64,000 nucleotides of DNA, from contig JAGGVJ010000040.1 in assembly GCA_021158055.1 (NCBI GenBank), forward strand, positions 36,474 to 100,473, read 5' to 3'. Source of the stretch: Candidatus Iainarchaeum sp. (GTDB taxonomy: Archaea; Iainarchaeota; Iainarchaeia; JAGGVJ01). Shown here one piece after another: positions 6,029 to 26,158 of this stretch. The number at the start of each line of letters is the position of its first letter. Positions within the stretch are counted from its first letter, which is position 1. The notes below the pieces were generated by a model that did no database searches, was not told the DNA's origin, and saw only the letters and a program-made list of their open reading frames with translations. Both the position numbers and the translations under genes were made by a program.

Positions 6029-9000
6029 TCATTTAGCAAATCCTCTTATGAACTCAACAATTATTTCATCCAATTCATCTTCACAGGCATCCAATTCCAG
6101 ACCCTGCCCACTGTTTATAAAACATATCTCCGGCGGTCTTTCATCACCATAATCCTTATCTTCGCACACCGGTCTTTCGTCTGAACCCATACTGAATATC
6201 AACCCCGTGATTATCAACTCACTGGTTGGACTCAAACTGTCATCTTTGTTTCTCCTGACTACTTTTACCGGCGTTACTGTATTTGTCTTTCCGATGTCTG
6301 ACATTTGCTTCCCGTCAATACTAACGTCTCCTTCAAGTATTTTAAGATACTTTCTCTGAATGTTTTCTACAACTTCCTCTGAACTGCCTTTTACAACCAC
6401 TGAAACTTTCTGGCCTGTTCCCGCGGGAGCAGAAGGATTCCAACTCATGATTGCAAAAATTCCGTCGTATTTATTGATAAGATTCACTACTCTTAAACAC
6501 GCGCTTTTATAGGCATCATCTTCCTTTTCACAACGGTTTTCATCAAGATTTTCCCCTACATACCTTGCAAACAGATTAAATTGACTGTTACCGGAGGCAC
6601 GCGACGGTGAAAGATTTCCTGCCAATCCCTCAATGCCCTCAATCCCAGCTGTGTTGGAGTATTCAACATCAAACATCTCCTCAAAAGGCAAGCTGTATGT
6701 TCCTTTCTGCACGCCGGAACCGTCACTAAGCGGCGCAAAAAACAACGGGAAATACTTCGGCAGGTTTATCACGCCGAAATTGCAGTTGTAAGTGGACTTG
6801 CTGTCAGCTTCCTTTCTGTCAACTTTTACGATATAGCTGTTTTCACCATCCCTCGTGTAAATCCTTTTCCAGACACCGCAGGACATCTTTTTCGGACTAA
6901 CCTCAAATTTGATTGACGTCGGGCCTGGACTGCTTATGTCACTTCCAACAACAAAAATTTCCTTGTCCCAGCTTAAAAGTTTAAGGCGCGCAGGAGAAAT
7001 TCCCCCGAGTTTAAACGGGGATTCCCCCCGATCATCTCTGAACACACCCAATGCAAGAGACATAATCCCATTGTATTCCTCATCTGTAAAAGCAAATTTA
7101 AATTCATTCTCGTGAATATTAGCTCTTTTCAAATTTCCGCCATCCAACGGAGAACTGAAAAGGAAAAGATACAATTCGTTCAAAAGCTTGAAAGTTGTCT
7201 GGTCGCAGTAATGCGTGTTGCATTCCCTGAACAGTTTGGAAATGTCTTGCGCTGAAAACCCTGAAACTTCACTGCCGTCGTCGTCAACAATTATTTTGTT
7301 TCCGTTGAACATCGCAGCAACTTCGCTAAACCCCCTGCTGTCTTCTTTCACCTTGAAATTGCCGCCCGAGGTTTTCTCAACCGGCTGGTCTTCCAGTGCT
7401 TCTTCCCCGAAAATCGTGGCGAAAAGAGAGTCGTATTCAATAGTGCACTCTGTTCCGATTACGTTCACCCTGAAATCTGCAATCTTATTTTCAGGTTCGC
7501 TGAATCCTTCAAGAAGCTTTGTTTCACCCCGACCGACAAAAGTTTCAGAAAGGTCATAACCGTAATTGGTTGTGCCGGAAGTCGTCGAACTCTCAAGGAA
7601 ACGAACTCCCTGCTTTCCTTTGTTCTGCGCCTTCAGCCCTTCTTCGGAGTTGATGAAAATAAGTGTCGAGTTCAGGTCAGAGCAATTCAGATATTTCTTT
7701 TTAAAAACATGGCTGCACTCTGTAGCCGCTTCACTTTCTTCTTCTCTTTTCATGCTGTATTCTATGCTGAACTCTTCTTCACTTTCACCGAAACTGACAA
7801 AAAGAAGATCAGATTTCCCGGATTCAATAATCACATCCTTGTCAGTCCCTGCGAAATTCGGATTTTTCGTTATTGTGACTTCTGCATCTGACTTGTTGTC
7901 AATAAACAGGCCGCCCAGCGAGTCGCTCAACTCAAACGATACCTTGTCGCACAGCTCGCTTCCGTAGACACAACCGTCGTCACGGTTAACGTTCACGGTT
8001 ACTTTTTGTTTCGGGGCAGTTTCTTTTGATTCGCCGATGTAGATTGCAAGCACCCACTTGCCGTTGTCGTCAGTCAAATCGTCACTCACTTCCGCTTCCA
8101 GTTCAAACGTCTTTGCCTCGTCAATCAACAGTTTGTGTTCCTCGCTGAACTCTTCAAGAACTCCTTCTTTTTCAGCTTCTTCGTCATCGCCGGTAACTAT
8201 CTCAAGAATCGTTGCAGTGGCCAAACCCTTGTCTGATCCTTCCTCGTCTTCACCCGGCAAAAGCTTGAAATACAGGTCAATGGCGTCTTCTGAAATGTTT
8301 TTCAAATCAAACTTGATTGACTCTGTTTTTTTGTCCTGCATGCACATGTTGTCAAAAGAAATGCTTTCAATGGAGGTTTCAGTGTTTTGCTTGAGCACTT
8401 TCACGTAACTTTGCCCGCTTTGCGGTGAAATGCTCACTGAAACAGGCAAAGTGGCTTCAACAGGTTCGCCTGAACAGTCAACTGTAAGAACATACTGCCC
8501 TGAAACAGCCAGATTGCCTGTTATTGCCTTTTCTTTGTCTATTTCCGCCACAAGTTCAATGTCTGTAAGCGCGCTGCTTTTGTCAGTCCATTTTGAAAAC
8601 GCTGTTTCAATGTCCCCTCCGGAGCTTTTGCTTCTAAGCAACACGTTCAGCTCAAAATCACCCGCGACAGTGTCGCCGCTTAAAACAATGAATTCCTGGC
8701 CTGAAAACGAACTGATGTTGCAGGAACAAACAGTTTCTATTTTTATCCCCTGCAGTATTTTTGACCTGTTGCCGGAATCAAGCAAAAATTCTGCTTCCTG
8801 ATCGCCTGAACCGTAAGATATCCTGAAGCAGTCGGAAGAACCGTGCGCAGTCACTTTGAACGGCAGGGTTGTAATATGCAGCTTGTTGTCGCTGTCTGAT
8901 TTGCCTGCAACGAAAACATATCCTTCAAAGCTTGGATCACTTGCGGTTTCAACGCTCACCCACGCTTTCATCTTGAAATCAAGAGTGGAGCCGTTTTCAA

Positions 9001-12000
9001 TTTCCCTTCCCAGAATAATGTTTTTGAAGTCAAGGTGAAAGTCGTCTGACTCGTTTCTTGAGACAATGTCAGCGACAGTAATCGTGATATTATTTGAGCC
9101 ATTGTTTTTCAGTTTCAGGGTTTCTTCAATGGTTTCTGTTTTTTCAACAACGCCGAACTCAACAATTGAATCGCTTCCCTCTGAATCAGTTAACTTGAGG
9201 TCTGAGTCAAACTCTTCTGAAACATTTATGTCAACGCCTGCCGGCCTGAACCTACCTGCGCTTACCCTGGCGTTGACTGTTCCTTCTTCAAGTGAAAAGA
9301 ACTCTCCCTGTTCAGGGAAAATGTATTCACCGTCTTTTCCAGAGCCCTCTTCGTCGTCAAACCCTGTTTTTGAATAAGTCACGTCTTCCCCGAGAGGCAC
9401 ACCGGTTTTGTTTGAAAGAAGAACGGATGCGCCAGTCACCGGAGTATCGCTTCCTGCTTCAGTTACAATCAGTTTTATCTGGTTTCTTCCTTCAAGAATC
9501 ATTGTCGAAGGGCTCACGTCAACGTCAAGCAGTTTGTCCCCCGTGGAATCAAAGTAAACTGTAAACACGCCCCCCTCATCTTCTGCACCGTCTTTTGAAA
9601 ACTCAAACTCTATTCCCACCCCGTCGCTGACAACTCTTGAAAACGCCTTTATTTCCCCTGCCAGCAAATCTGACTGGTAATCCTCAAGAAGCGTTGAAAT
9701 CAAATCGCTTTCATCTTCAAAAGCAATCCCCCCGATGTCATATGACTTGAACCTAACGCTTCCTGCCATGTCAGGCGAAACTTTTACTTTGTATCCGTCA
9801 AGATAACTCCCATTCTTTGAATAAGCGGAAAACTCAACCACAAAATCAGTTGAGGTGACTGTTGAAAACAATCCGCTCGGGAAATATTCTTCACTGTCCT
9901 CTTCCCTGAAAAGCGCTGAAAAACACACATTTTCCCCACACAGTTCTTCCTGCGCAACCACAAGGAATTCTTCCTCGCGCAATGCAATGTCTTTTTCGTC
10001 AATGTTTCCCCTGAAACCAAAAACTGCCTTGTCTTCTTCTTCCGCATCGCTTTTTACGGCAAGCCACACCTCAATCTGGTAAACCATTGGCCCGCCTGAA
10101 GAACTCTCCGCCTTTGAAAGGGAGATCCATTTCCAGCCCCCTGAAGACAGCATTGAAGTAGTTTCAAACTCCTGTCCGCCCAAAACTTCAAGGTCAATTT
10201 TTGAAGAATAGCCGCTTACAACCCAGTTTGAATCTTCAAGGCCGAGCCCTTCACCGACCGAAAGCATAAACACAGAGTCGCCTTCCGCGTTCTTTGGAAT
10301 AATAACATTGAAAACCGCGCGGTACGTTTCATCTACTGCAACCGCGTATTTTTGGTTTCCGCTTTGGTCAAATAGTCCTTCAAAATCTATTGATTCATCT
10401 GAACTTTCAGCATGCATTTTTGCGTTCACGGTCGCCCCGCCCGAAACAACAAGAACGGGCCTTGACACAAAGTCAAGGTAATTGTCTTCTTCGACCATCA
10501 CATAAACAACCATGCCCTGCGGAGCCAGCAACTCATACGCCCCTTCTTTGCCGCTTGTGTCTTTTGTTATTTCACTGTTTGTTTCCACGTCAAACAACGA
10601 AACTTCGGCGCTGTTCAATGCAGAGCCGTTTTTTGCTTTTTCAACATTTACAATGATTTTTTCAAGTTTTGAACTCAACAAAATATCAACATTTGTTGTT
10701 TTTCCTGCTTCAACTTCAACTCCGGAAACCTGTCCGGATGAAGCCAGCGACTCTGCTTTTGCAGTTATTGCCGAACCTGCCGGGACATCCGGGAAAGAAA
10801 CACAACCGTCTGTTTCGGTTTTTTTCAGGGGCATGCCAAGGAAATCTGTTCCGGTCCACAAGGTGACTGACGCCCCGTGAACAGCAGCAAAGTTTTTCTT
10901 CACGCAGACATTCAGGTTTGCCGAGTTTTGTGTAGTGGACTCTTCAAGTTCAATTGATACCGTTGAACCGGAAGAAACGCCTTTTTTGAGCTTTGGAAGA
11001 TACCCGCTCTTGTAAGCTGAAACATTGTATGTCCCTGCTTTCTCAAGCAGGACAACTCTTCCGCTTGAAGCAGTTGTTTCAGACAAAAGGATTTCTGAAC
11101 CAGTAAGCAAAGTGACAGCTGCTCCGGAAATGCCTCCAAAGTATTCTGTTTTCACTTCCACGATTATCTGGTTTTCGTCACCTGCTTTTTCCATGGTGAT
11201 TTCTTTTCTTTCAACTGTTTGTCCTGATTCGATTTCAAAATAATTTGTTCTTTCTGTGGAGTAAATTCCCTCCGGATCTGTTGCAACAACCTGTATTTCA
11301 ACGTTTGCGGGTATTTCGCGAAGGCTTACCGTTCCTCCCGCGTAAGTCGTGCCCTCTGAAATTTTCGTTGAGTCATACCTTTTGGCAGTTACGGTTATTC
11401 CGGCAAGCAAATCACCGGATTCGTTTTTAACTGTGACTGGAAGGGTAACTATTGAACTTTTCGGATCAGGCGCGCTTAGATTTTTTGCAAGGGTAACTGT
11501 AAACTGCTTGTTTTCTGATTCAGAGTCAACACTCACTTCTTCGCTGTAGTGGTTGTCTGAAGAAAACTCAAGAACATATCTTTTGCCTCTTTCAAACCCG
11601 CTGAAAGAAAACGCGCCGTCTGTGTAAAAAGTAGTTTTTATGTTCAGCTTGGCACCAGTATCTTCAACACCCAAAATCGTGACCTCGCCGTCCAGCACTT
11701 CATTGTCATCGTTTTTTATCAAAAATGACGCTTCAAAACTCACTGTTTCTTTGGCAAGTGAAATCTCTGCAAGGGTTCCTGCTTCGTATGTGTTTTGCCC
11801 GATTTCAAATCCGTCTGTGTTGATAACCAATTTGACTGATTTTTGCTCATACCCCTCTTTTTCAAGGTTTATCCTGAGCGGTTCTCCAAGCCGCGGGGAC
11901 GCAATGTAAAACACCCCGTCCTCCTGCGTCTGCCCAAGGTCTTTCAAGCCGGTTTCAGGAAAATTGGCTGACACAAAAACCCCTTGGACAGGGTCAAGCG

Positions 12001-12268
12001 TTATTGAGTCAATGACTGTTACTTTGAACACTAAAGGCGACATTGCCCCTGCTGCAAGGAAAGCGACTGTTCCGAGAAGCACAGTCAAAAGAATAAGGAC
12101 AACCGGAAACGAGGGGACGTTTTTTGACTCCATTGCATCAACAACAGAGTACACAGGAACTCCCTTGCCGTCCAGAAAATCAAGCACAGAATAGTACTTG
12201 TCCTCCATGGATGCATAGAAATCTGAAAGCGATTCCTTTAAGTTACTTGCCACACTCAAATAAACCAA
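6029..12268 (-). CDS. Giant N-terminally anchored surface protein A (2079 aa) with tandem carboxypeptidase-regulatory-like/Ig-like beta-sandwich domains
   Basis: Single TM after a ~55-aa N-terminal domain; repeated V.D....PV.GA.V......T...G motifs; acidic beta-rich body; Cys-containing C-terminal domain. Exact start uncertain (12268 or a nearby TTG/GTG). Confidence 0.85.
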   Translation of the reverse strand: MVYLSVASNLKESLSDFYASMEDKYYSVLDFLDGKGVPVYSVVDAMESKNVPSFPVVLILLTVLLGTVAFLAAGAMSPLVFKVTVIDSITLDPVQGVFVSANFPETGLKDLGQTQEDGVFYIASPRLGEPLRINLEKEGYEQKSVKLVINTDGFEIGQNTYEAGTLAEISLAKETVSFEASFLIKNDDNEVLDGEVTILGVEDTGAKLNIKTTFYTDGAFSFSGFERGKRYVLEFSSDNHYSEEVSVDSESENKQFTVTLAKNLSAPDPKSSIVTLPVTVKNESGDLLAGITVTAKRYDSTKISEGTTYAGGTVSLREIPANVEIQVVATDPEGIYSTERTNYFEIESGQTVERKEITMEKAGDENQIIVEVKTEYFGGISGAAVTLLTGSEILLSETTASSGRVVLLEKAGTYNVSAYKSGYLPKLKKGVSSGSTVSIELEESTTQNSANLNVCVKKNFAAVHGASVTLWTGTDFLGMPLKKTETDGCVSFPDVPAGSAITAKAESLASSGQVSGVEVEAGKTTNVDILLSSKLEKIIVNVEKAKNGSALNSAEVSLFDVETNSEITKDTSGKEGAYELLAPQGMVVYVMVEEDNYLDFVSRPVLVVSGGATVNAKMHAESSDESIDFEGLFDQSGNQKYAVAVDETYRAVFNVIIPKNAEGDSVFMLSVGEGLGLEDSNWVVSGYSSKIDLEVLGGQEFETTSMLSSGGWKWISLSKAESSSGGPMVYQIEVWLAVKSDAEEEDKAVFGFRGNIDEKDIALREEEFLVVAQEELCGENVCFSALFREEDSEEYFPSGLFSTVTSTDFVVEFSAYSKNGSYLDGYKVKVSPDMAGSVRFKSYDIGGIAFEDESDLISTLLEDYQSDLLAGEIKAFSRVVSDGVGIEFEFSKDGAEDEGGVFTVYFDSTGDKLLDVDVSPSTMILEGRNQIKLIVTEAGSDTPVTGASVLLSNKTGVPLGEDVTYSKTGFDDEEGSGKDGEYIFPEQGEFFSLEEGTVNARVSAGRFRPAGVDINVSEEFDSDLKLTDSEGSDSIVEFGVVEKTETIEETLKLKNNGSNNITITVADIVSRNESDDFHLDFKNIILGREIENGSTLDFKMKAWVSVETASDPSFEGYVFVAGKSDSDNKLHITTLPFKVTAHGSSDCFRISYGSGDQEAEFLLDSGNRSKILQGIKIETVCSCNISSFSGQEFIVLSGDTVAGDFELNVLLRSKSSGGDIETAFSKWTDKSSALTDIELVAEIDKEKAITGNLAVSGQYVLTVDCSGEPVEATLPVSVSISPQSGQSYVKVLKQNTETSIESISFDNMCMQDKKTESIKFDLKNISEDAIDLYFKLLPGEDEEGSDKGLATATILEIVTGDDEEAEKEGVLEEFSEEHKLLIDEAKTFELEAEVSDDLTDDNGKWVLAIYIGESKETAPKQKVTVNVNRDDGCVYGSELCDKVSFELSDSLGGLFIDNKSDAEVTITKNPNFAGTDKDVIIESGKSDLLFVSFGESEEEFSIEYSMKREEESEAATECSHVFKKKYLNCSDLNSTLIFINSEEGLKAQNKGKQGVRFLESSTTSGTTNYGYDLSETFVGRGETKLLEGFSEPENKIADFRVNVIGTECTIEYDSLFATIFGEEALEDQPVEKTSGGNFKVKEDSRGFSEVAAMFNGNKIIVDDDGSEVSGFSAQDISKLFRECNTHYCDQTTFKLLNELYLFLFSSPLDGGNLKRANIHENEFKFAFTDEEYNGIMSLALGVFRDDRGESPFKLGGISPARLKLLSWDKEIFVVGSDISSPGPTSIKFEVSPKKMSCGVWKRIYTRDGENSYIVKVDRKEADSKSTYNCNFGVINLPKYFPLFFAPLSDGSGVQKGTYSLPFEEMFDVEYSNTAGIEGIEGLAGNLSPSRASGNSQFNLFARYVGENLDENRCEKEDDAYKSACLRVVNLINKYDGIFAIMSWNPSAPAGTGQKVSVVVKGSSEEVVENIQRKYLKILEGDVSIDGKQMSDIGKTNTVTPVKVVRRNKDDSLSPTSELIITGLIFSMGSDERPVCEDKDYGDERPPEICFINSGQGLELDACEDELDEIIVEFIRGFAK

Positions 12269-12403
12269 TCCTGATTTTTAATTTAATTCCACTGTCTCCA
12301 ATCAACAACCGGTTCAAACAACCACCAGTCATGATAAACATTGCGGTTAAACCTTTAAAATAATTACCTTATTAAAAACATTTAGCAAAAGCGGTAAAAA
12401 AAA

Positions 12404-12835
12404 TCAAAGAAAAAACGGGACTGCCGCTGCAAGCGCTGACACCGCAAGCAAAGCAAACGCTATTTTGACCGGCTTGTTCGTGTTTGACTTTCCCCGCAGG
12501 TCTGCGTGGAGTTCAAGTCCGAGGTACGCGCCTGCAAAAAGCGCGATGAAAACCGGAAAAAACGTTTGGGCTGCTGCCTGTGGGTTTTCCTGCATAAGTT
12601 TGCCGACTGCCTGTCCGAAAAAAAAACTCGGCACAAAAGAAAAATAGCCGAAAAAAAGCATCGCTGACACAAAAGGCGCAACAGTTCCAAGCAAAACTGC
12701 GACAAGCAACTGGTCTGAAGTGATATTCAGGGGCACTTCAAAAAGCACCCCTTGTTCAAGCGCAAACCCAGCCAGAAGCCCGGCTGCAAAAAACGCAAGG
12801 GCAACCACCAAAAAAACCTGTTTCGGTTTCATCAT
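12404..12835 (-). CDS. Small polytopic membrane protein (4-5 TM)
   Basis: 143 aa, almost entirely hydrophobic; lies between the two giant genes on the same strand. Confidence 0.75.
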   Translation of the reverse strand: MMKPKQVFLVVALAFFAAGLLAGFALEQGVLFEVPLNITSDQLLVAVLLGTVAPFVSAMLFFGYFSFVPSFFFGQAVGKLMQENPQAAAQTFFPVFIALFAGAYLGLELHADLRGKSNTNKPVKIAFALLAVSALAAAVPFFL

Positions 12836-12899
12836 TCAGACACTGTTCCTTTATTCAATTGCTTATCACATCTCTCAGATTTCTCAAATTTCTCAAGCA

Positions 12900-15800
12900 T
12901 TACACTTCTTCAAAAGTCACTATGCAGTTGTCGTGCTGTGCAATATACACGTCGAGTGCCCAGCATGCGCCTGCAATTGCTGCGCTTCCCAACGGGTTGA
13001 TTCTCTTTACTTTTTTTAATGACTCAAGTTTTTTCTCGGTTTCTTCAACACCTTTTGTCATTTCATTGCTTTTAGCCACAAACTCACTGTGTTTTTCCGT
13101 GTTTTTCAAAAGCGCGTCTGTTACGTCATCCCCTTCGTCGCTAAAGTTAACACCTTCGTCTGCAAGAGAACGTAAGTCAGTTTCCAGTTGCCCTTTACGG
13201 GCGGTCAACTCGTTTTGCGTTTCAAGCAGTTTTTCTTTACCCAGCGCTCCTCCCTCTATCTTTCCCTGCAACTTCCAAACATTTTCAAACTGCTCGTTTA
13301 CTTTTTTAAGATTTTCAACTCTTTCCGCTTCAAATTCACTGAACATTTTCTGGGTGTCTTTCACTTCTTTCAAAAGTTCCCTGCGCACAGTCAATTCTTT
13401 ATTTGACGCATCCATCGTTTTCACTATGTCACCGGACAGCTTGTTTAACTCGCCGGTTTCCTTTACAAGATTTGTTTTGCCCTGCTCTAACGTCTGAATG
13501 CCTTTTTTAAGATTACTGGTATCTATTTCAATTTTCTTGAAATCACTTAAAGATGTCAAAACATTATCAAGAGCAGAATCATAACCCATTGTCAGGTTAG
13601 AGAACGCGCTATTTCCCTTGATTTCACTTACTGCATCTGCCAGTTTGGCCGGGTCGTCCCCCTTATTCACCATGTCCCTGAAGTCTGTGATAAATTTTCG
13701 ATCCATATCATCTAATGTGTCCCCCGGAGCAGTCATAAATTCATCAATACCTTCCAAAAGCACTTGTTTATTCTGTTTAAAAAGATGGCCTGCATCGTCA
13801 AGACGGGGACTGAGATCATTTAACGCAGCCCTGTTTTGAGTTATGGTTTCCTCAATGCCTTTCACTTGCTCCATGTTCAGATTCATGGTGTCATTTGCAT
13901 TCTTGAAAGCCGATTCCAACCCCTTGACATCAAGTTCTGCCGGTTTTGTTTTGCTGAGATTATCCAACACATCCTTTAATGCCTTTTTTGAATCATCAAT
14001 TTCTTTATTGACGGTGTCCAGTGCATCCAAATGCGCTTTATAAACAAGATCATCACCCATCCCGGCCGTATCTATCTTCATGCCTGCCAGTATGGCGTCT
14101 CTTTCTTTAGTCAAACCAGCTACTTTGCCGTCTAATTTACTTATATCATCTTCTAACCTGGCTATTTCATCCAGAGTATCTGCATATTTACTCCATTTGC
14201 CTGCCGCGTTCTTGTATGATTCGGCTATTTCTTTCTTGATATTATAGTTGTCAAGATAATTCTTATTGCCCAAAACCAGCAACTTAAGCTGTTTTCCAGA
14301 CGAGTCAAGTGCATCCGGTTCAAGAACCTGTGAAGCTACTGCTCTTTGTATCTTGAACTGCCTGATTGCCGGATACAAACGTCTAAACGGCTGCGCAAGA
14401 GCCCCTTTTACTTTTTTTAACTTGCCGCTGCTTTCAACGACTTCTTCCCCGAGCTTCTTGTAAGAACAAATAGCTCCCGCAGCTGTGGGGCCGGCAGTAA
14501 TCCCTGCGGCTATCATCGGGGTGTAATAAGGTGAACGCGTCAAAGTGCTGATGTCAGTGAAGCCCTCCCCTGCTTCTTTGAACTTATTCTTATAGGCCAT
14601 GTGGTCAAAGCCAACCTTCAGTATTTCGTCAACAACCAAAAAGTCAACCAACTGGTCAGCTACGAAAAGCCCGGCACTGGCTCCCGCGCCTGCCGGGTTC
14701 CAGGACATCAATGCTGCCCCGCCCCTGGCCACTGCAACCCCTGTCACAATCGTGCAGGCTGAATTCATTGCAGGGCAAGTGTTGATTGTCGGGCTTTCCT
14801 TGATTTCAATGTTCATCCTCAGTTTGACACCGTCATCACCCTTCATAACCTTTTCATTTCCATCCTCAGTCGTCATCAATCCGCTCCACCTTATTTCCGG
14901 CCTGCAGCTGTGGCAGTCATCTGTCAACATACTCTCGCCCCAAAAGTCAGATGAAAACGTGCTTCCCCAAAATTTTTCATCAACATCTGCAACGCACGTG
15001 GCCCAAGCGGGCTCGTTTTCCTTGTCCCTCAGGTTATGTATTTTATCTCTGAAAACATCTTTTGTGAAATCTTCTCCCGTGTACTTGATTTTGTACCCGC
15101 CGTAGATTCCTGTGCCGGTGTCAAAAGAAATCAGCGCCGCAGTGCATTCACAGGCAATAAGACTTGCCAGCGCTTCAGCATCTTTCACAATCAAAGTCCG
15201 CCCGTCCTTGTCAACTTCCACCCTGCCCTCAAACTCAGGCAATATTATTTTCCAATTTCCATTGGCAAACACGCACTCGTTTCTGCCCGCGTCTTTTGCG
15301 TTCAAAGGAGCTTCAGTCAAACCCGTAATCACAAACGAATCAATCTTTGCCCTGTCGCCTTCACGTTTTGAAGTGGACTGCGACCCGAAATAACAACCGA
15401 TCGGTTTTGCTCCGGAAGCAATCTCAACAAAAGCACTCACTGCTGTTCCAATTGATTTGTTGAGATCTTCTGATGAGTCTCCAAGAGCATTCTTGTCAAT
15501 CACCAATTCAAAAATATTACTGCCGAACTTGGAAACATCGTGGTGAATCACACCGTAAGCTGGGTAGCCGATGTCCTTATTAAGAATATCAACCAATTCG
15601 CTTTCTTCTTTAGTCAAATTAGCCGAATCCCTAAAGAGCAACTTGACAACGTTTTTTCCGCCGACGACATCAAGAGATGTTTTTACCCTGCCATCTTTTT
15701 CAAGCAAATTATAATCCAGTTCAGTTCCGCTTAAACCCGAAGCGATTTCTTCAACTATTCCCTTAAAACTGTCTTCTTCGTTCTTAGGAATTACAAAAAC

Positions 15801-18800
15801 TGTGTTTTTCATTTCAGCTGCATCTTCCGAACTCAGGTTATCCCAAGGCAAAAGAGTGCTCATGTGAAGTGCGTTTCCTTCACAGGCAGCTGTTTCACCG
15901 ACATAGCTCGTTTCTACAAAGATACTGAACTGACTGCCTATTTCACCATCACGGGCAAAAAACACCGGCTTGAACTTTACTTTGTACCAACCGCATTTCC
16001 TAAGTAACTCTTCCGAGTCATAATCATTGTGTGAATCATAATCATTGTGTGAATCATAACCATAGTGTGAATCATAATCATAGTGTGAATCATAATCATA
16101 GTGTGAATCATAATCATAGTATATGTCTCCACCGGTGCTTATTCTACCTGAATTCACCATTTCTCTGTAATCACCGCTCACTATCTGCCCGTTAAAGTAA
16201 CGTGAAACAACATTGGTTTTTGCCCGTTTCAACGCTTCTAAAGTCACCCGGTCATCCATCAGGAACAAGTCAACCCCGTTTAATATCCAGTCATCCTGCG
16301 GAACAAGACCTGACTGAAGCAACTCTTCAAAAGTGCAGATGTTTCTTTTAGATGACCCGCACCCGATATCCCTGATTTTCTTGCCTTCAAATGCTGTCAG
16401 TATCTTATCCATGAACCGGTCTGCTTTTTCAATTACATATTCAGCGGCCTGCATCCCATCACAGTACCCGTCACTGCAGTCCCCGCTCAAACCTGCTTTT
16501 GTCGGAATCGAGACAGTTTTTGTTATCCCGATATCCGGGTCGCATGAGTGAACCAGATACTCTGTCGTGAAATCGGATGTCTTCAAATCAGAGCCTATTT
16601 CCACGTTTATCATTATAAGCTCGCTTAAAATTTCTGTATCTGAAGATGTTTCACCTGCAATGAAAACACCTTTCTGGAAGCTGTCACTCACTATAGCTGC
16701 TCTTTTGGACACTCTTTTCAACCTAAAGTCAAACTGCGCGGTTTCACCGTCAAAAAGAGACCTTTTTGAACCTTCTGAAAAGTCAATGTACAACCTGAAA
16801 TCGTTAAGAGGAATGAAATCGACAAACCTGGTTATCCTTTTGCCGCACTCGTTCTTGATAACAACTGAACTTTTTATTTCATCAAAGTAAGCAGTTGTTG
16901 AAACAAAATCAATTGACTCCGAACTGATTACCTTCAGGCAACCTTCTTCTTCGGGAACTATTTCCACAATCAAGCCCACTTCCCTTGAAACTGAAGTGAC
17001 TTTTCCCGGCTTGTTCTTATAATAGACATCTGCGTCGATAACAAGAGTCCCGGTCATTCTCCCTGCCTCTCCGCTGTAACCTGAAGCATCAACTTCAATT
17101 TCAAAATGAGTTGTGTCTTCCGGTTCAAGCTCATCTATTGTTGACGATGCTTCAGTCTCGCTCAAATAATTCACATAAATATTCGGGTTGATCTCCCAGT
17201 CTTCTGCTTTTTCACTTATCCTAATGTTTTTGAAAGTAACCGAACCGCGGTTTTTCAAGACAAGTTTTTCTGCATTGCCGTCCAGTATATCAAGCGATTC
17301 CCCCGCCTTGAGCTTTAGCTTTACCTTGTTCTCAACATCAAGGGCTGCTGCCTCGTCAAGGAACACCACTGCATAGTCAAGCTCTCCTGAAACGTCCTGC
17401 GAGCCGTTTTCCCCCCTGAAAACAAGGGTTCCGACAACATCATCATCTTCAGCGTTGTTCTCGCTGTCATCCAAAGTGTCTGCCTGGAAAGTCACAAGGA
17501 CAGTCGCCTTGTTCTCGCCTGAAAGCGAATCAGCTGAAAGCAATTCTATAACTGTACTTTCTTCTTCACCTGTCCCTTCAATCACCTGGTTTCCGTTGCA
17601 GTCAAGGACAAAAATTCCACCGTCAAGATCATTGCTGGAATAAGCGACAATGTTTGACAAATCAATCCCACAATTGTTTTTCAAAACGACTTCCATTGAA
17701 TTGAACGCAGTGTCAAGGTCTTCTGAGCCGACCACAAACTCTGTCTGCGACGGGGTCACTTCAAGGCATTCCGCAATTACCTGCGCGTCTATTTTCGGCG
17801 CGTACAAGAGTTTTATCCTTCCCTGCGCTGTCACATACTCGTTGTCTTTCACTGCAAATATCTTGATTGTGGCCTCGGCTGACGCGGAATCCGTCGAGTC
17901 AGGGAAATAACCTGAAGTGAACGTGAGGTAAGTTGTCTCGCCAGGCCCGAGCAATCTTGTGATTGATGCGTCGTCGAGCTCCAAGCTGAAATCATCATCC
18001 GGAAAGCCCTCGTCGCGTTCAACTACAACCTGCAGGTCAGTGAGTTTTTTGCTTGAGCTATTTTTTATGGCAAGCTGTTTTGTCGCGGTTTTTATATTAA
18101 GGGGAATCTCAATCACAAACGGGTCTTCGTCAATTGCGATCGCCGCTTCTTTTCCGACACGCACAAGAATTGTCTCTTCGGCAAAGTGATCTGCTGAAAC
18201 ATTTACTGCAATGACTCCCGAGGCAGGCTCAATTGTGGTTGCGTAGACGCCGTTTCTTCCGCGGTTTCTCTTGTCTTTTCCTGTAATTGTTATTGTTTTG
18301 TTTCCAAGCGGTTTCCCGATGTTGTTGACCAGTTTTATCGTGGCGTCGGTAACTGCTTCAAAATCTCCCGCGCGAAGCACTGTTATCATAAACTGGGTTT
18401 TTTCACCTGCAACAGCCATTTCCGGCTCAACGAAAACACTGAGCCCCAGTCCCGCAACAACTTTAAGGAACAGCTCTTTTTCAATCAGCACTTCACCTGA
18501 CCTTTTCACAATTATTTTTACTGAAGCCGAGTTGTTTTCAGCTGTCGGGACAAACACTGCCTCAAGGCCTGTTCCCCTGTTTTTCCCAAGGCTTTCAAGG
18601 TTGACTGCAAGCGCGTGCGCTTCGTCATCAAGCTGTGTCTGGGTTCCAAGGTAATGGTATGACACAAAGTCAAGCGATGCGTCAGAATTTAAAATTTCCA
18701 CCTGCAAATCTTCAAGGTCTTGTTTTGCCTGCACTTCGATTCCAAGCGAGTAGACCGCGCTCAAGTACGCCTCACTTGCAGTCAGGTCCTTGATTTCTTC

Positions 18801-21197
18801 CCCGGTTATTGCCCTTGAAAAACCGTAATTCATGCAGATTTCCTGCGTGCATTCAACCGTATTTTGCGTCACTGAAAATTCAACGGGTGTGGTGGCTGCG
18901 TAAAGCGGCTGTTTTCCTTCAGAGTCAATCAAAGTTCCAAGTTCTTCGTCAAACGGGCTTCTTTCCATGCCGCCCAGGTTTATGTAAGTCCAGCCCCTGA
19001 AATTGAATTTCACTCTCTCGCCCAAAACCACGTTGTCTTTCACCTGAACTGCAAAGTCCACAACATGCGTTCCTTTCCCGACATCTTTTCCAACCACCTG
19101 CACCCACTTGTTCATCTGTCCTGAAAGCGTGGTTCCTGCCATGTCAATATCCTGTCCAAGCGGGGGGTTGTGGGTCGTGCCTGAAGACGGTTCTCCCATC
19201 GCCTGCATCACTCCCGTGATTGCAACATTGTCTTTTGCTGAAAAGTCGTTTTCTTCAAGGCCTGTCATCAAAAACAACCCTGCCTCGTCTGACGCGGCGG
19301 CCGTGTTCAACGCGACTCTTGCGCGGTACTGCTTGCTTTCAACAACGCTTTCTACCCTGTTTCCGAACCTGTCGAACAAGCCGATGAAAACCGCGCCCGT
19401 GGAATCCGCGGGGCTGAAAAGCTGTACATCTATGCGGTTTTCTTTTGAAGAGTCAATGTTTATGACATGGGAAAAGTATTTTGCGCTGCCAGGCGATTCA
19501 ACGACTGCGTAAGCCTGTATGCCTTCAACAACGTCAAACTCGGCAACCCCATTTGAATCCGTGACAGTCGGCGACGAAAGCTCTTTGCCTAAAACCGTTG
19601 CCGCATTGTCAAATAAAATCACGCTTGCTCCTGAAACCGGGTTTTCTTCTTTTGTCACTTTGACCGTGACTTTTGTCTGCGTTGCGCTTATGTCAATCAT
19701 TGGTTCCTGCGTGGTCGGAGTTTCCACTGGTTTTGCCACTCCGACTTTGGAGCCGACGTATGCCTTTGCAATGACTGTCTTGTTGTTCGGAACGTCGCTG
19801 AACTCCGCGCAACCGCTTGAACCGGTCAATTCTGACGGGATTCCCAGCACTTTTGACGCAGTCTCAAAAAGAACAACCGGCACACCGTTTAACGGTGCCT
19901 TGGTGTCTTCTTCGCGGACACACACTCTAAGGGTTGATGTATTTTCCTTGGTTGACAGCTCCATTGAAGCCAAAACTGATTCCCCTGCCCCGACATCTGT
20001 CCTGACAAACGGGACATAGTTGCCTGAGTAGACAGAAACCATGTATTTTTTTGACTTGTCCACAAGAACTTTTCCTGTCCCGTCGATGTCCTGCGATTTC
20101 ACGAGAACGCCGTCCAGATAAACGTTTACGGCTGCTTCAAGGGGTGTTCCGGTCATGGTTCTTGCAGTGACGTTTATAAAGTCGCTGTTTGCAAAATCAG
20201 CTGTTGAAATAATCATTTCAAGTTTGTTTTCAGCGTTTGAAAGGACCTGAACGGCTTTTTCAGTCTGGCTCAAGTACTCTTCTTTTGACACCGTCACGTT
20301 GTAAAGTCCTGGTATCAGCCCTCTTAAAACTGTTTTTCCGTCAACGTCGGTCTTTTCAGAAGACGCGAGTTCTGCAACGCCTTTTGGGCGGGCTTCAACC
20401 TCCGCTCCTTCAACTGCATCGCCGTTTATGTCTTCAATGTAAACCAGTAAATCTGCAGGTTCGCTTTCATCGGCTTCAAGGCTTATGGAGAGCTCCTGGT
20501 CTGAGTTGAACGTGAATGTTTCGCTTTTTTCCTGATAGCCCGGGGATGTGAAAACAAGGTCAATGTCTTGTCCCTGCGGAACTATCGCTTCAATTACCCC
20601 GTTTTCTTTTATGGTGTATGTTCCAAGGTCTTCTCCTTCTTTCATTACCTTGACTGTGCCTTCCCTTACAATGCTGTCAAAATCGGTTGTGACTCTCATC
20701 ACTACTTTCACGTTTGTTTTTTCAAGTTTTGAAAGCGAAAAATCCTGCTGAAGCGAAGTGAAATAAAAGGATTTGTCAAGGGTTTCGTAGTCATACTTTG
20801 TTATCTCTACTGTGCCGTAACTATTGAGCTTGTCGAAATTTTCTATTGTTGCAATTCCTTTTGAATCGGTTTTTCCGATAAACGAGCTTAAGGTATCCGG
20901 GTAGGTTATCCTGACATCAGCCCCTTCAATGGCTGCTCCTGTTTCCGCATCAACGACTTTTACCTGAAGCGTTCCAGAGGCGGGGGTGCCAAGCATGAAA
21001 AACGCGACAAGCCCAATGAAAAAAATCGTCAAAAATAACGGGAAAACAGGTATGTTCTTGTCTTCAAGCGCGTCTATTACGCGGTAAACAGGGATTCCGT
21101 GGTCATCCACAAAATCCATCAAACCAAAAAACTTGTTTTCCACGCCGTAATAAAAGTCGTTCAAATTGTCTTTAACTGACTTGGATGCCAACTTCAT
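12900..21197 (-). CDS. Giant N-terminally anchored surface protein B (2765 aa), paralog of A, with C-terminal hydrophobic hairpin and long coiled coil
   Basis: GGGGGT SD + ATG; N-terminus DFYYGVENKFFGLMDFVDDHGIPVYRVIDALEDKNIPVFP matches protein A; CarboxypepD-reg-like repeats (VVDAETGAAIEGADV, IEDINGDAVEGAEV). Confidence 0.88.
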   Translation of the reverse strand: MKLASKSVKDNLNDFYYGVENKFFGLMDFVDDHGIPVYRVIDALEDKNIPVFPLFLTIFFIGLVAFFMLGTPASGTLQVKVVDAETGAAIEGADVRITYPDTLSSFIGKTDSKGIATIENFDKLNSYGTVEITKYDYETLDKSFYFTSLQQDFSLSKLEKTNVKVVMRVTTDFDSIVREGTVKVMKEGEDLGTYTIKENGVIEAIVPQGQDIDLVFTSPGYQEKSETFTFNSDQELSISLEADESEPADLLVYIEDINGDAVEGAEVEARPKGVAELASSEKTDVDGKTVLRGLIPGLYNVTVSKEEYLSQTEKAVQVLSNAENKLEMIISTADFANSDFINVTARTMTGTPLEAAVNVYLDGVLVKSQDIDGTGKVLVDKSKKYMVSVYSGNYVPFVRTDVGAGESVLASMELSTKENTSTLRVCVREEDTKAPLNGVPVVLFETASKVLGIPSELTGSSGCAEFSDVPNNKTVIAKAYVGSKVGVAKPVETPTTQEPMIDISATQTKVTVKVTKEENPVSGASVILFDNAATVLGKELSSPTVTDSNGVAEFDVVEGIQAYAVVESPGSAKYFSHVINIDSSKENRIDVQLFSPADSTGAVFIGLFDRFGNRVESVVESKQYRARVALNTAAASDEAGLFLMTGLEENDFSAKDNVAITGVMQAMGEPSSGTTHNPPLGQDIDMAGTTLSGQMNKWVQVVGKDVGKGTHVVDFAVQVKDNVVLGERVKFNFRGWTYINLGGMERSPFDEELGTLIDSEGKQPLYAATTPVEFSVTQNTVECTQEICMNYGFSRAITGEEIKDLTASEAYLSAVYSLGIEVQAKQDLEDLQVEILNSDASLDFVSYHYLGTQTQLDDEAHALAVNLESLGKNRGTGLEAVFVPTAENNSASVKIIVKRSGEVLIEKELFLKVVAGLGLSVFVEPEMAVAGEKTQFMITVLRAGDFEAVTDATIKLVNNIGKPLGNKTITITGKDKRNRGRNGVYATTIEPASGVIAVNVSADHFAEETILVRVGKEAAIAIDEDPFVIEIPLNIKTATKQLAIKNSSSKKLTDLQVVVERDEGFPDDDFSLELDDASITRLLGPGETTYLTFTSGYFPDSTDSASAEATIKIFAVKDNEYVTAQGRIKLLYAPKIDAQVIAECLEVTPSQTEFVVGSEDLDTAFNSMEVVLKNNCGIDLSNIVAYSSNDLDGGIFVLDCNGNQVIEGTGEEESTVIELLSADSLSGENKATVLVTFQADTLDDSENNAEDDDVVGTLVFRGENGSQDVSGELDYAVVFLDEAAALDVENKVKLKLKAGESLDILDGNAEKLVLKNRGSVTFKNIRISEKAEDWEINPNIYVNYLSETEASSTIDELEPEDTTHFEIEVDASGYSGEAGRMTGTLVIDADVYYKNKPGKVTSVSREVGLIVEIVPEEEGCLKVISSESIDFVSTTAYFDEIKSSVVIKNECGKRITRFVDFIPLNDFRLYIDFSEGSKRSLFDGETAQFDFRLKRVSKRAAIVSDSFQKGVFIAGETSSDTEILSELIMINVEIGSDLKTSDFTTEYLVHSCDPDIGITKTVSIPTKAGLSGDCSDGYCDGMQAAEYVIEKADRFMDKILTAFEGKKIRDIGCGSSKRNICTFEELLQSGLVPQDDWILNGVDLFLMDDRVTLEALKRAKTNVVSRYFNGQIVSGDYREMVNSGRISTGGDIYYDYDSHYDYDSHYDYDSHYGYDSHNDYDSHNDYDSEELLRKCGWYKVKFKPVFFARDGEIGSQFSIFVETSYVGETAACEGNALHMSTLLPWDNLSSEDAAEMKNTVFVIPKNEEDSFKGIVEEIASGLSGTELDYNLLEKDGRVKTSLDVVGGKNVVKLLFRDSANLTKEESELVDILNKDIGYPAYGVIHHDVSKFGSNIFELVIDKNALGDSSEDLNKSIGTAVSAFVEIASGAKPIGCYFGSQSTSKREGDRAKIDSFVITGLTEAPLNAKDAGRNECVFANGNWKIILPEFEGRVEVDKDGRTLIVKDAEALASLIACECTAALISFDTGTGIYGGYKIKYTGEDFTKDVFRDKIHNLRDKENEPAWATCVADVDEKFWGSTFSSDFWGESMLTDDCHSCRPEIRWSGLMTTEDGNEKVMKGDDGVKLRMNIEIKESPTINTCPAMNSACTIVTGVAVARGGAALMSWNPAGAGASAGLFVADQLVDFLVVDEILKVGFDHMAYKNKFKEAGEGFTDISTLTRSPYYTPMIAAGITAGPTAAGAICSYKKLGEEVVESSGKLKKVKGALAQPFRRLYPAIRQFKIQRAVASQVLEPDALDSSGKQLKLLVLGNKNYLDNYNIKKEIAESYKNAAGKWSKYADTLDEIARLEDDISKLDGKVAGLTKERDAILAGMKIDTAGMGDDLVYKAHLDALDTVNKEIDDSKKALKDVLDNLSKTKPAELDVKGLESAFKNANDTMNLNMEQVKGIEETITQNRAALNDLSPRLDDAGHLFKQNKQVLLEGIDEFMTAPGDTLDDMDRKFITDFRDMVNKGDDPAKLADAVSEIKGNSAFSNLTMGYDSALDNVLTSLSDFKKIEIDTSNLKKGIQTLEQGKTNLVKETGELNKLSGDIVKTMDASNKELTVRRELLKEVKDTQKMFSEFEAERVENLKKVNEQFENVWKLQGKIEGGALGKEKLLETQNELTARKGQLETDLRSLADEGVNFSDEGDDVTDALLKNTEKHSEFVAKSNEMTKGVEETEKKLESLKKVKRINPLGSAAIAGACWALDVYIAQHDNCIVTFEEV
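16014..16118 (-). repeat. In-frame 18-bp tandem repeat, about 6 units, encoding (Y/N)(D/G)YDSH
   Basis: GTGAATCATAATCATAGT-type units read directly; protein YDYDSH YDYDSH YDYDSH YGYDSH NDYDSH NDYDS. Confidence 0.95.
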
Positions 21198-23863: not shown

Positions 23864-26158
23864 ATGGGTGAAATGGATAAGGGCAAACATGTAATTAAAA
23901 GTGAGGGTGGCAAAAAAACCCTTGTAATCGATTACAGGAACTCAAAAACCGGGGCAGACATCGCAGAATACGCCGACTGCATGGAACAAGTGCTCTCTCT
24001 TTTGAGAACAAACGACGCTGACTTAGTGGTTTTGGCTGACCTGTATGAAAGGGTCTACGACGAAAAGCAGACAAAAATGCTCAAAGAAATAGCTGACCTG
24101 GCAAATTTGTTTGAAACAGAAAACCTTTGGGGCTACACATATCTCGGAAACGTAAAAACAGAAAGCGAAGTGACTTTAAGCGAGAGGCACAACCTGGTGG
24201 TCAAAATTGCCCACGACCTGCTTTTGCGCGACCCGATAAAGGCATACCTGACTCTTCTTGACACCCTGAAAAAAGAAAAAATGAGAGCAAACGCAGGAGG
24301 AAAAACCTATCCCGTCGTGTTCCTGAAAACACTGGTGTTTGTCAAAAACAAGCTTGAGGCAACCAATCTTATTTCCGTCACAAAAAACCTGATTTTAAGG
24401 CTTCACAAAGTCCCGACGGGACGAGGTTTTTATCACTCGTTTTTTGACGCGCAGATAAAGCCGTCTTTTGTGGGTTCAAGGCTTCTTTTCAAAACCGACG
24501 AAAAAGTTGAACTGGTTGACCAGTACAACGTTCTTGACGCGGAAGTGCGGGTCTACAGGCACCCTGAAAAAATCGCTTTAATGTATTACATCAACCCGCC
24601 CGAGTACTCGCTTTCGCCTGAAAAATACTTCATCTTGACAAAAACAAAAGAAGTCGTTGCAAAATACAGGCCCACAAACACAGAATTTTCAGATGCTTCC
24701 CAGTCAAGGAAATACTTCGAGCACATTTACCAGGCAACCATAAACGACATTGCAAAAGAAAACAGCATTTCCATCTCACCGCGGGAAAAAGAAGCGCTTG
24801 CAAAAATAGTGGCGCGCTACACAATCGGCTACGGCGTGCTTGAACTCCTGTTGTCTGACAGGAAACTGACAGACGTTTACCTTGATGCGCCTCTCGGAAC
24901 CAAACCTATTTATGTTGTTCACGGCGAATACGGGCAGTGCCAGACAAACGTAATCTTCACAAACGAAGAAGCCCGCTCAACAGTATCCCGGCTCAGGGCG
25001 CTTTCAGGCAGGCCTTTTGACGAAGCCCACCCTGTCATGGACTTTAACCTATCCTCGCTCCAGACAAGGGTCGCAGTCATCGGCCAGCCCCTCAGCCCGC
25101 ACGGCATAGCGTTTGCGTTGAGGCTTCACAAGACCACTCCCTGGACTTTGCCCCAGTTCATTGACGCGCACATGATTGACCACCACACAGCAGGCCTTTT
25201 GAGCTTTCTCGTGGACTCAAAGGCATCCATGCTCATAACCGGCTCAAGGGGTTCGGGAAAAAGCTCCATGCTTACCGCGCTCATGCTTGAGATCCTTCAA
25301 AACCTGAGAATCATCGTCCAGGAAGACACCCTTGAAATTCCCGCGCCGTACCTCAAAAGCATCGGCTACAACATCCAGCAGCTCAAAACCCAGAGTGCGA
25401 TTTCCGTGGGAAGAACCGAAAACGAAGTAAGCCCTGACGAGGCATTGAGAACAGCGCTTCGTCTGGGTGACTCTGTCCTGATCGTGGGTGAAGTGAGATC
25501 AAAAGAAGCAAGAGTGCTTTACGAGGCAATGCGTATCGGCGCGGTGGGAAACGTTGTCATGGGGACCATTCACGGCGAAAGCGCTTATTCCGTGTGGGAC
25601 AGGATTGTAAACGACCTTGAAGTGCCGAACACTTCCTTCAAGGCAACCGACATGGTCCTTGTCCAGGCCCCTGTTAGATTCAAGGGCTCGCTCAAACGGC
25701 ACAGGAGAGTAATCCAGCTGACTGAAGTGAAAAAGCACTGGCAAAACGACCCTGCCGCAGAAGAGGGGCTTCTTGACCTGCTCTCTTTTGACGCTTCAAA
25801 AGACGGGTGGGACCTGTTAAAGGACAACTTCAAGGACTCCGAGTACTTCCCGAAACTCAAGCGCACAACCGGCATGAGCATTGAGGAAATATGGAAGGAC
25901 ATAAAACTGCGCGGAGAATCAAAAAAATACCTTGTCGACTCAAAAAACAAATTTGAAATCCCTGCTCTTCTGGAAGCCGAAAACACTGTTCCGATGAACA
26001 ACAAATTACTGCTGATGGCTGAAGAAATGCGCAAATCCGGCGGAGGCATGGACTACGACAAGCTTCTTGAATCATGGAAAAAATGGGTTGACAACCGGTA
26101 TGTGAAAGAAATAATTGCAAAAAAAAGGCTTGTTTCAACACGTAAAATCAAAAGGTGA
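23864..26158 (+). CDS. Type IV pilus/Tad secretion ATPase (VirB11/FlaI/CpaF family) with long N-terminal extension
   Basis: Walker A ITGSRGSGKSS, Asp box QEDTLEI, Walker B LIVGEVRS, His box GTIHGES. Confidence 0.92.
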   Translation: MGEMDKGKHVIKSEGGKKTLVIDYRNSKTGADIAEYADCMEQVLSLLRTNDADLVVLADLYERVYDEKQTKMLKEIADLANLFETENLWGYTYLGNVKTESEVTLSERHNLVVKIAHDLLLRDPIKAYLTLLDTLKKEKMRANAGGKTYPVVFLKTLVFVKNKLEATNLISVTKNLILRLHKVPTGRGFYHSFFDAQIKPSFVGSRLLFKTDEKVELVDQYNVLDAEVRVYRHPEKIALMYYINPPEYSLSPEKYFILTKTKEVVAKYRPTNTEFSDASQSRKYFEHIYQATINDIAKENSISISPREKEALAKIVARYTIGYGVLELLLSDRKLTDVYLDAPLGTKPIYVVHGEYGQCQTNVIFTNEEARSTVSRLRALSGRPFDEAHPVMDFNLSSLQTRVAVIGQPLSPHGIAFALRLHKTTPWTLPQFIDAHMIDHHTAGLLSFLVDSKASMLITGSRGSGKSSMLTALMLEILQNLRIIVQEDTLEIPAPYLKSIGYNIQQLKTQSAISVGRTENEVSPDEALRTALRLGDSVLIVGEVRSKEARVLYEAMRIGAVGNVVMGTIHGESAYSVWDRIVNDLEVPNTSFKATDMVLVQAPVRFKGSLKRHRRVIQLTEVKKHWQNDPAAEEGLLDLLSFDASKDGWDLLKDNFKDSEYFPKLKRTTGMSIEEIWKDIKLRGESKKYLVDSKNKFEIPALLEAENTVPMNNKLLLMAEEMRKSGGGMDYDKLLESWKKWVDNRYVKEIIAKKRLVSTRKIKR

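Follow-up and report, generated by a model that had tools for sequence, protein, structure and literature searches.

The giant gene P0001 lies on the minus strand of a 64,000-nt stretch of a Candidatus Iainarchaeum sp. contig (JAGGVJ010000040.1, positions 36,474 to 100,473; "the window" refers to this whole stretch). It encodes a protein of 2,765 amino acids (aa) whose hydrophobic and helical C-terminal end is a real, non-random feature. Judged by its sequence, P0001 is a member of a family of giant proteins found throughout its class of DPANN archaea, since it has both the N-terminal motif and membrane anchor of that family and an ~1,800-aa homologous stalk. In relatives, the part beyond the stalk is a module of three hydrophobic helices, a variable helical region and a terminal domain. 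We infer that residues ~2141–2765 of P0001 are a diverged, enzyme-less version of this tip module, and we tentatively favor a role in which its helices, packed as a bundle, interact with the membrane of another cell, a partner or host. A first-pass annotation of this DNA had described the end of P0001 as a pore-former- or fusogen-like tip; that idea is plausible as a mode of action and is unsupported as kinship. The parts of P0001 are as follows.

12900..21197, minus strand: giant gene P0001, 2,765 aa, "type A" (open reading frame [ORF] and translation)
20979..21197, minus strand: conserved cytoplasmic N-terminal motif (~50 aa) and strongly hydrophobic membrane anchor (residues 52–73) (Kyte-Doolittle)
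15627..21176, minus strand: extracellular stalk homologous to the family (residues 8–1857) (Pfam domains, alignment to the family hidden Markov model [HMM])
14631..14777, minus strand: segment A, an uncharged Gly/Ala-rich helical hairpin (residues 2141–2189) (position, composition)
14466..14516, minus strand: segment B, a second uncharged Gly/Ala-rich stretch (residues 2228–2244) (composition)
13002..14465, minus strand: Cys-free, Lys/Leu/Asp/Glu-rich, helical, coiled-coil-like region (residues 2245–2732) (composition, AlphaFold2, HMMs)
12945..13001, minus strand: segment C, a third small-residue hydrophobic helix, with Cys2745 (residues 2733–2751) (composition, position)
12903..12944, minus strand: acidic 14-residue tail with Cys2758, at the end of the gene (translation)

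What distinguishes the end of P0001 from the remainder of the protein? First, the Gly/Ala-rich hydrophobic segments that the first-pass annotation saw on either side of a long helical region are there, at residues 2148–2189 (14631–14756), 2228–2244 (14466–14516) and 2733–2751 (12945–13001). Second, runs of 16 or more residues lacking Asp, Glu, Lys and Arg are confined to the N-terminal anchor and to four sites within the last 626 residues, where they start at residues 2140, 2159, 2222 and 2733; four or more such runs arose in just 22 of 20,000 composition-preserving shuffles of residues 2140–2765. Third, Gly and Ala together make up 37%–53% of the segments, compared with 15% of P0001 as a whole. 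The segments are only weakly hydrophobic, with Kyte-Doolittle 19-residue means of 1.3–1.6, as against 2.65 for the N-terminal anchor; this is too weak for them to resemble ordinary membrane anchors, in agreement with the earlier view of them. Segment A carries Cys2148, an Arg-Gly-Gly turn and a "WNP" motif, and segment B is without a consistent counterpart among relatives.

The helical region between segments B and C (residues 2245–2732) has no Cys, whereas the stalk has 23, and its Lys content is 12.5%. It had been described as a heptad coiled coil, which is partly right. AlphaFold2 run on the single sequence predicts it to be all-helical, at low confidence (predicted local distance difference test [pLDDT] 47). 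Its only profile matches are to the coiled-coil arms of SMC, Rad50 and ASRP models (E 2e-9 to 1e-8), at 33–37 bits, far under the cut-offs of 300–1,087 bits that belong to these models. A crude heptad score is patchy along the region, and Gly/Pro breaks are frequent; "coiled-coil-like, segmented" is a more accurate description than one long coiled coil.

The remainder of P0001 supports the placing of this end at the far tip of an N-terminally anchored giant surface protein. Pfam finds CarboxypepD_reg, Big_1, SpaA-type and related Ig-like domains at residues 71–574, and a full-length family HMM built from 41 type A proteins matches residues 8–1857 (E 1.4e-166); the same HMM gives a weak colinear match over residues 2401–2644 (i-E 0.011). 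Of the beta-sandwich stalk of ~2,150 aa that had been proposed, the Ig-like domains and the family homology to residue 1857 bear out a long stalk, and Pfam gives no support for its fold beyond residue 574. Within the stalk, residues 1694–1730 (16008–16118, minus strand) consist of about six tandem six-residue repeats of the "YDYDSH" type.

Giants of this kind are widespread in the class. In 196 of 215 class genomes there are matches to the first 1,200 aa of P0001, most often at two neighboring loci, and the proteins at these loci are of two types. Type A giants are matched as far as residue ~1,180, and most of their ORFs have a length of 2,400–3,400 aa; type B giants are matched only to about residue 950 and are without the C-terminal hydrophobic segments. 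The window has one of each, with a small gene between them.

12404..12835, minus strand: 143-aa protein with four strongly hydrophobic stretches, the next gene downstream of P0001 (translation)
6029..12268, minus strand: paralogous giant P0002, 2,079 aa, "type B" (family HMM)

P0002 has the first ~1,180 residues of P0001 in common with it, is matched by the family HMM at residues 9–663 and 766–1080 only, and is without a hydrophobic or helical end. The same N-terminal motif and anchor are present in P0001, P0002, P0003 and P0004 and in all 20 giants inspected from other genomes (L002–L021). The motif, of ~50 residues, ends in "GIP.FP" directly before the anchor and is predicted to lie on the cytoplasmic side. 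The genome carrying P0001 is 1.15 Mb in size and 95% complete, and its closest relatives among the genomes compared share only its class; it is the sole member of its family there. One relative's protein bears the source name "Candidatus Diapherotrites archaeon".

The C-terminal parts were compared in a sample of 60 loci, which is non-random because the loci were chosen for long ORFs. Five of these loci are type B; the other 55 include 51 complete ORFs, and the C-terminal parts of 41 were aligned (alignment A1). Four sampled giants (L024, L025, L038 and L042, from families f18 and f23) match the first 1,200 residues of P0001 as type A giants do and have long Gly/Tyr/Ser-rich low-complexity stretches near residues 1290–1690. 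The HMMs for the hairpin, the third helix and the hydrolase found no match in these four, which may represent a third kind of giant.

In the 41 aligned relatives, the tip module has a constant order and lies at the same distance from the N-terminus as the segments of P0001. A Lys-rich flank leads into helix 1, which contains an invariant Cys, and a tight turn with Arg or Lys leads into helix 2, which contains "DCG(I/L)P" and a second invariant Cys. A variable helical region follows, and then a third helix with the motif "G..CG..(A/S)N.AG" and a domain of 200–300 residues. Of the 51 complete ORFs, 42 contain all three elements (helix hairpin, third helix and terminal domain) according to HMMs; since 40 of these had served to build the HMMs, L005 and L006 are the only independent tests.

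An AlphaFold2 model made from alignment A1, with L019 as its first row, reached a pLDDT of 79. In this model, residues 65–95, 101–129 and 459–501 form helices, residues 199–440 form helical bundles and residues 509–727 form an alpha/beta domain. Foldseek found no match to this model at E 0.001 or better in PDB or BFVD. VIA-align matched residues 587–725 of L019 to lytic transglycosylases, g-type lysozyme, GH19 endolysins, glucosaminidases, muramidase effectors of the type VI secretion system and T7 gp16, the top row being MltF (5aa1_A, Z 9.4, root-mean-square deviation [rmsd] 4.1 over 114 residues). Z values of 6–9 are middling by VIA-align's own note, and the hydrolase rows are consistent among themselves. 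Independent Pfam matches among the 41 modules are to Glucosaminidase (three), SLT (two), Amidase_2, Amidase_3 and NLPC_P60 (one each). Taken together, profiles and model indicate that the relatives' giants end in variable peptidoglycan hydrolases, with a predicted lysozyme or lytic-transglycosylase fold in L019. A hydrolase in this position would have to act outside the cell. It also gives the module of the relatives, which sits directly before it, a setting suited to the breaching of cell envelopes, a point in favor of the reading in the first-pass annotation.

Several other VIA-align rows span the L019 model from residue 58 or 64 to residue 490 or 501, with 106–146 aligned residues; examples are WbaP (8t53_A, Z 8.1), TqsA and MavE, whose Z values are no sign of kinship. 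Such spanning matches show that the hairpin and the third helix are packed together in the model. For the helical domain, only generic bundles were matched (Z 5.5–7.2). The hydrolase is not always present. In family f7, L022 ends 33 residues past the third helix, and L023 and L039 end ~90 residues past it; all three have Cys-free, Gly-rich, glycine-zipper-like hairpins with 28–32 uncharged residues and a similar third helix. Family f7 is another lineage that has either no hydrolase domain or less than the full one, and the short end of L022 indicates that the module can persist without the enzyme. A word-indexed protein search with one relative's module returned only that module itself and one relative.

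The Cys residues of the module place a constraint on how its helices are arranged. In L019 module numbering, positions 84 and 112 are Cys in 41 of 41 sequences. Positions 91 (helix 1) and 471 (helix 3) are both Cys in 25 sequences and neither is Cys in 16, with no mixed case. On a FastTree tree of the N-terminal 1,200 residues, a region separate from the module, the state of this second pair has changed in concert at least six times, and none of 500 label shuffles needed so few changes. The pattern suggests two disulfides that staple a three-helix bundle. The first-pass annotation had pointed to Cys residues flanking the whole insert; these are present in P0001 ("NTC" at residues 2139–2141 and "DNCIV" at residues 2756–2760), and in the family the important Cys residues lie inside the segments rather than around them. 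The coupled Cys pairs, together with the extracellular wall hydrolase, argue that the family bundle is outside the cytoplasm, which supports the extracytoplasmic placement suggested earlier. We infer an extracellular location for the module of P0001 as well.

The helices of the bundle are uncharged without being strongly hydrophobic. In helix 1, 15 consecutive columns of alignment A1 contain three charged cells of 615. The family helices are 41%–57% Gly, Ala, Ser, Thr and Cys and only 30%–39% large hydrophobic residues, compared with 67% in the true anchor, and conserved polar residues (Asp111, Asn92 and Asn476) lie inside them. On an approximate Hessa-type insertion scale, the best 19-mers of the segments score ~+5 to +7 kcal/mol, in P0001 and in the family medians alike; on the same scale, the N-terminal anchor scores −2.4 in P0001 (family median −4.0) and the most hydrophobic 19-mer of the stalk has a family median of 7.6. 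Given these unfavorable scores, the translocon would probably pass the segments to the outside. A bundle with no charge on any helix face must be shielded by something, either lipid or protein.

Does P0001 have this module? The homologous stalk ahead of it argues that it does, as do its elements, which follow one another as in the family and are equally far from the N-terminus. The charge pattern is also the same: the flanks ahead of helices 1 and 3 are basic, those following helices 2 and 3 are acidic, and the turn has an Arg. Cys2148 stands at the position of the first invariant Cys, and the "WNP" after the turn has a parallel in the "GWNP" found in the same spot of two relatives (L031 and L032). 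There are also differences. Segment C is without the "G..CG..(A/S)N.AG" motif and is instead a Gly/Ala-rich helix with one Cys at the equivalent place. Compared with the family, P0001 has segment B as an extra Gly/Ala segment and a longer, more coiled-coil-like helical region, and it ends 14 residues past segment C, where relatives have the 200–300-aa hydrolase domain. P0001 (residues 2164–2168, 14693–14707) and P0002 (residues 1941–1945, ~6440–6454) both have "SAC" followed, 17–18 residues on, by "MSWNP"; the sequence around "MSWNP" in P0002 is not hydrophobic. Recent gene conversion as the source of the shared motif was ruled out, since the DNA differs and the Ser codons, TCC in one and AGT in the other, belong to different codon families.

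How might the module work? In the role we favor, P0001 would be fixed to the membrane of the archaeon itself by its N-terminal anchor, and its stalk and module would lie on the outside. For the family, we picture a bundle of three small-residue helices, made up of the hairpin pair and the third hydrophobic helix and stapled by two Cys pairs, of which one is invariant and the other covaries; the helical domain would loop out from between these helices, and in most cases a peptidoglycan hydrolase would come next. Once the envelope of the partner or host is reached, the bundle would engage its membrane, either by a fusion-peptide-like hairpin that dips in or as a conduit formed with other copies. 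The action would resemble the one proposed for the hydrophobic stretch and muralytic end of the phage T5 protein Pb2. Membrane engagement is suggested by the extracellular location, the absence of charge on any face and the fusion-peptide-like composition. It is also suggested by the adjacency to wall hydrolases and by the persistence of the module where the hydrolase is lost. A bolder version is a cell-anchored "harpoon", in which the distal stapled bundle inserts into the partner membrane and several copies open a feeding conduit for the symbiont; we regard this as a speculation that is rather unlikely to be correct. If true, the harpoon would amount to a cellular version of the tape-measure and ejection proteins of phages, and the enzyme-less, coiled-coil-rich variant would be the form for a partner without a murein wall, e.g., another archaeon.

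Several observations weigh against a membrane-engaging role for P0001. First, the case for equating its module with that of the family is built on position, composition, the pattern of charges and the short "WNP" motif. The partner of the first invariant Cys is Gln2182 in P0001 (Asp-Gln at residues 2181–2182), and "DCG(I/L)P" is absent. The module HMM scores P0001 at E 0.13, which is not significant; of the sub-HMMs, the one for the hairpin reaches E 2 and the one for the third helix finds no match. Residues 2100–2765 have no sequence relative among 1.84 billion representatives and no match in 60 class genomes, and BLAST of the P0001 module against the modules of 16 relatives gave no match. 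Other searches with residues 2100–2765 had similar outcomes: a word-indexed protein search returned no match, a search of the genome itself returned only the query, BLAST against P0003 found nothing significant, the best ESM Atlas score was 0.82 (below the useful range) and Pfam at E up to 10 listed 14 chance-level families only. PHROGs gave no family for three modules. Second, the hydrolase is absent from this locus: the C-terminal-domain HMM, run over six frames of 11501–13400, gave a best E of 0.67, and a search of the 95%-complete genome turned up no SLT or Glucosaminidase family. The 143-aa ORF or another frame was considered as a split-off hydrolase and was ruled out by the same HMM. Third, stapling by disulfides would stand in the way of the extensive refolding typical of classical pore-formers. 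Fourth, the uncharged stretches are ~15 residues long, short for a bilayer. Fifth, the four segments of P0001, with basic flanks on the coiled-coil side, fit a topology in the archaeon's own membrane.

The strongest competitor to membrane engagement has the shielding done by protein. The bundle would be a structural or oligomerization core, a stapled hub that joins the stalk, the helical domain and the relatives' enzyme and never enters a membrane; other copies, or the type B partner, would cover the outer faces of its helices. The small-residue composition, the conserved polar residues inside the helices, the unfavorable insertion scores and the short uncharged stretches would all be expected of such a core, and the two coupled Cys pairs suggest a rigid unit. 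However, no face carries charge over four helical turns in 41 diverged sequences, which is unusual for a soluble bundle and would require a permanent partner protein. The adjacency to wall hydrolases, and the retention of the module after the hydrolase is lost, suggest that it has an activity of its own. We consider a purely structural core somewhat less probable than membrane engagement.

Could the segments instead be a second anchor in the archaeon's own membrane? The two helices of segment A, together with B and C, would then be four transmembrane helices, the coiled coil would be cytoplasmic and the stalk would be a giant extracellular loop. Four segments give P0001 a crossing count that fits a short tail outside, and the Lys/Arg-rich flanks toward the coiled coil, with the acidic tail, fit the positive-inside rule. 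The coiled-coil region is Cys-free and resembles SMC and Rad50 arms in composition. In addition, the top fold rows for the pLDDT-47 model are sensor domains that lie between two transmembrane helices (McpS, 2yfa_A, E 4.9e-4, TMt 0.44). Against this, the segments fall far below the true anchor on both measures (1.3–1.6 as against 2.65; +5 to +7 as against −2.4 on the insertion scale). Relatives have no consistent segment B, and with three crossings their wall hydrolase would be in the cytoplasm; the coupled Cys pairs point to an oxidizing compartment. In relatives, a basic flank precedes the hairpin, contrary to the positive-inside rule, and the Lys-rich flanks of P0001 may just reflect the high Lys content of the region. 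A second anchor is, on balance, improbable.

More improbable still is a decaying remnant, in which the tip module has drifted without function since the hydrolase was lost. Similarity to the family module is gone while the stalk is still recognizable, and one invariant Cys has been lost along with the enzyme. However, the reading frame has stayed open for ~626 residues, the order of elements and the charge pattern are preserved, and the shuffles described above show the uncharged runs to be non-random. The genomes compared include no close relative, so that the distance of the lineage alone may explain the divergence, and a hydrolase-less form also occurs in family f7.

Least probable is a true homolog of ClyA/XaxAB-type toxins, translocators of the type III secretion system (T3SS) or class I fusogens grafted onto an adhesin: the weak Foldseek rows for the pLDDT-47 model (XaxB 6gy7_B, E 4.9e-3; PaxB, E 6.6e-3; ClyA pore, E 5.3e-2; MakA, E 7.2e-2) come with TM values of 0.15 at most (XaxB 0.09–0.15) and an rmsd of ~30 Å on a model too poor to trust, PaxB reaches only E 0.34 on the confident model of the relative L019, and no match to any such family was found in Pfam, PHROGs or NCBIfam. 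No relationship of the kind raised by the first-pass annotation, to ClyA/HBL/XaxAB, to T3SS translocators or to class I fusogens, is supported by these collections, by the 1.84 billion representatives or by the Atlas, and the AlphaFold and Foldseek comparison that it had suggested yields, for the end of P0001, only low-confidence matches.

The surroundings of the two giants offer some further observations. Relatives of the 143-aa protein occur in 52 of 215 class genomes, and in several of them (e.g., G010, G046, G006, G135 and G191) the gene lies just downstream of a type B giant, unlike in the window, where it sits between the two giants. There are three genes for ATPases of the type II/IV secretion family in the window, at 23864–26158 (plus strand), 42112–43926 (minus strand) and 46527–48935 (minus strand). 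One of the three ATPases has a 4Fe-4S ferredoxin-type motif at its N-terminus.

How does the tip module compare with systems that are better understood? Its closest working analog is Pb2, the tape-measure protein of phage T5, in which a predicted coiled coil and a muralytic end accompany ~46 hydrophobic residues that are read as two membrane helices and proposed to insert into the target membrane, according to Linares et al. 2023 (PMC10038345). In both, a long helical, coiled-coil protein has a hydrophobic stretch adjoining a muralytic end. The tip module would be like Pb2 at most, and not a member of its family. Pb2 is a virion protein inside the tail tube, whereas P0001 is cell-anchored with a 2,000-aa stalk, and the neighbors of P0001 are pilus-type ATPase genes and unknown genes, with no phage tail context. 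Searches for a tape-measure relationship found nothing in PHROGs, only E 2.8 for Pfam TMP_3 and only E 0.06–0.35 for tape-measure rows in BFVD.

The ClyA-family toxins (ClyA, XaxAB, PaxB and MakA) resemble the module in having long helices and a hydrophobic hairpin, and differ from it in that the hydrophobic helices of the relatives are disulfide-coupled and rich in small residues. Class I viral fusion proteins have Gly/Ala-rich, weakly hydrophobic peptides beside heptad-like helices on a membrane-anchored ectodomain. The segments of P0001 likewise stand beside heptad-like patches on an anchored ectodomain; unlike in these fusogens, the anchor of P0001 is N-terminal, and there is no detectable homology. 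For translocators of the IpaB/YopB type, the Pfam and NCBIfam scans returned no such family. CdiA is a bacterial two-partner-secretion protein with FHA repeats that combines an anchored stalk, a membrane-translocation region and a variable C-terminal effector. The ends of the relatives' giants are variable in a similar way, with five Pfam hydrolase families; no similarity to CdiA was found in a comparison limited to Pfam.

The molecular basis of DPANN attachment to, and uptake from, other cells is largely unknown. A class-wide module at the far end of a giant protein, beside wall-cutting enzymes, is a concrete candidate for the step of contact or penetration. The covariation of its Cys residues is a testable structural constraint. 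The P0001 copy indicates that the hydrophobic and helical part can be kept where the enzyme is absent, so that two possible functions can be told apart. In open-access papers and bioRxiv, we found no description of the hydrophobic bundle; supplements may hold family tables. The accessible part of one account of DPANN pilus islands discusses those islands and not these giant proteins (PMC6393860), and another paper names DPANN in its reference list only (PMC12352652). The nearest published counterpart is the family of giants that Castelle et al. 2021 report, in the portion available, for Pacearchaeota and Woesearchaeota: DPANN surface proteins of ~3,000 aa with a wall-cutting terminal domain and a proposed action on bacterial partners (PMC8204110). 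The relatives of P0001 fit that description, a likeness by description only, and the same portion makes no mention of a hydrophobic bundle or a helical domain. P0001 differs from those giants in being without the enzyme, and its end would be a diverged member of a class-wide, little-described tip module.

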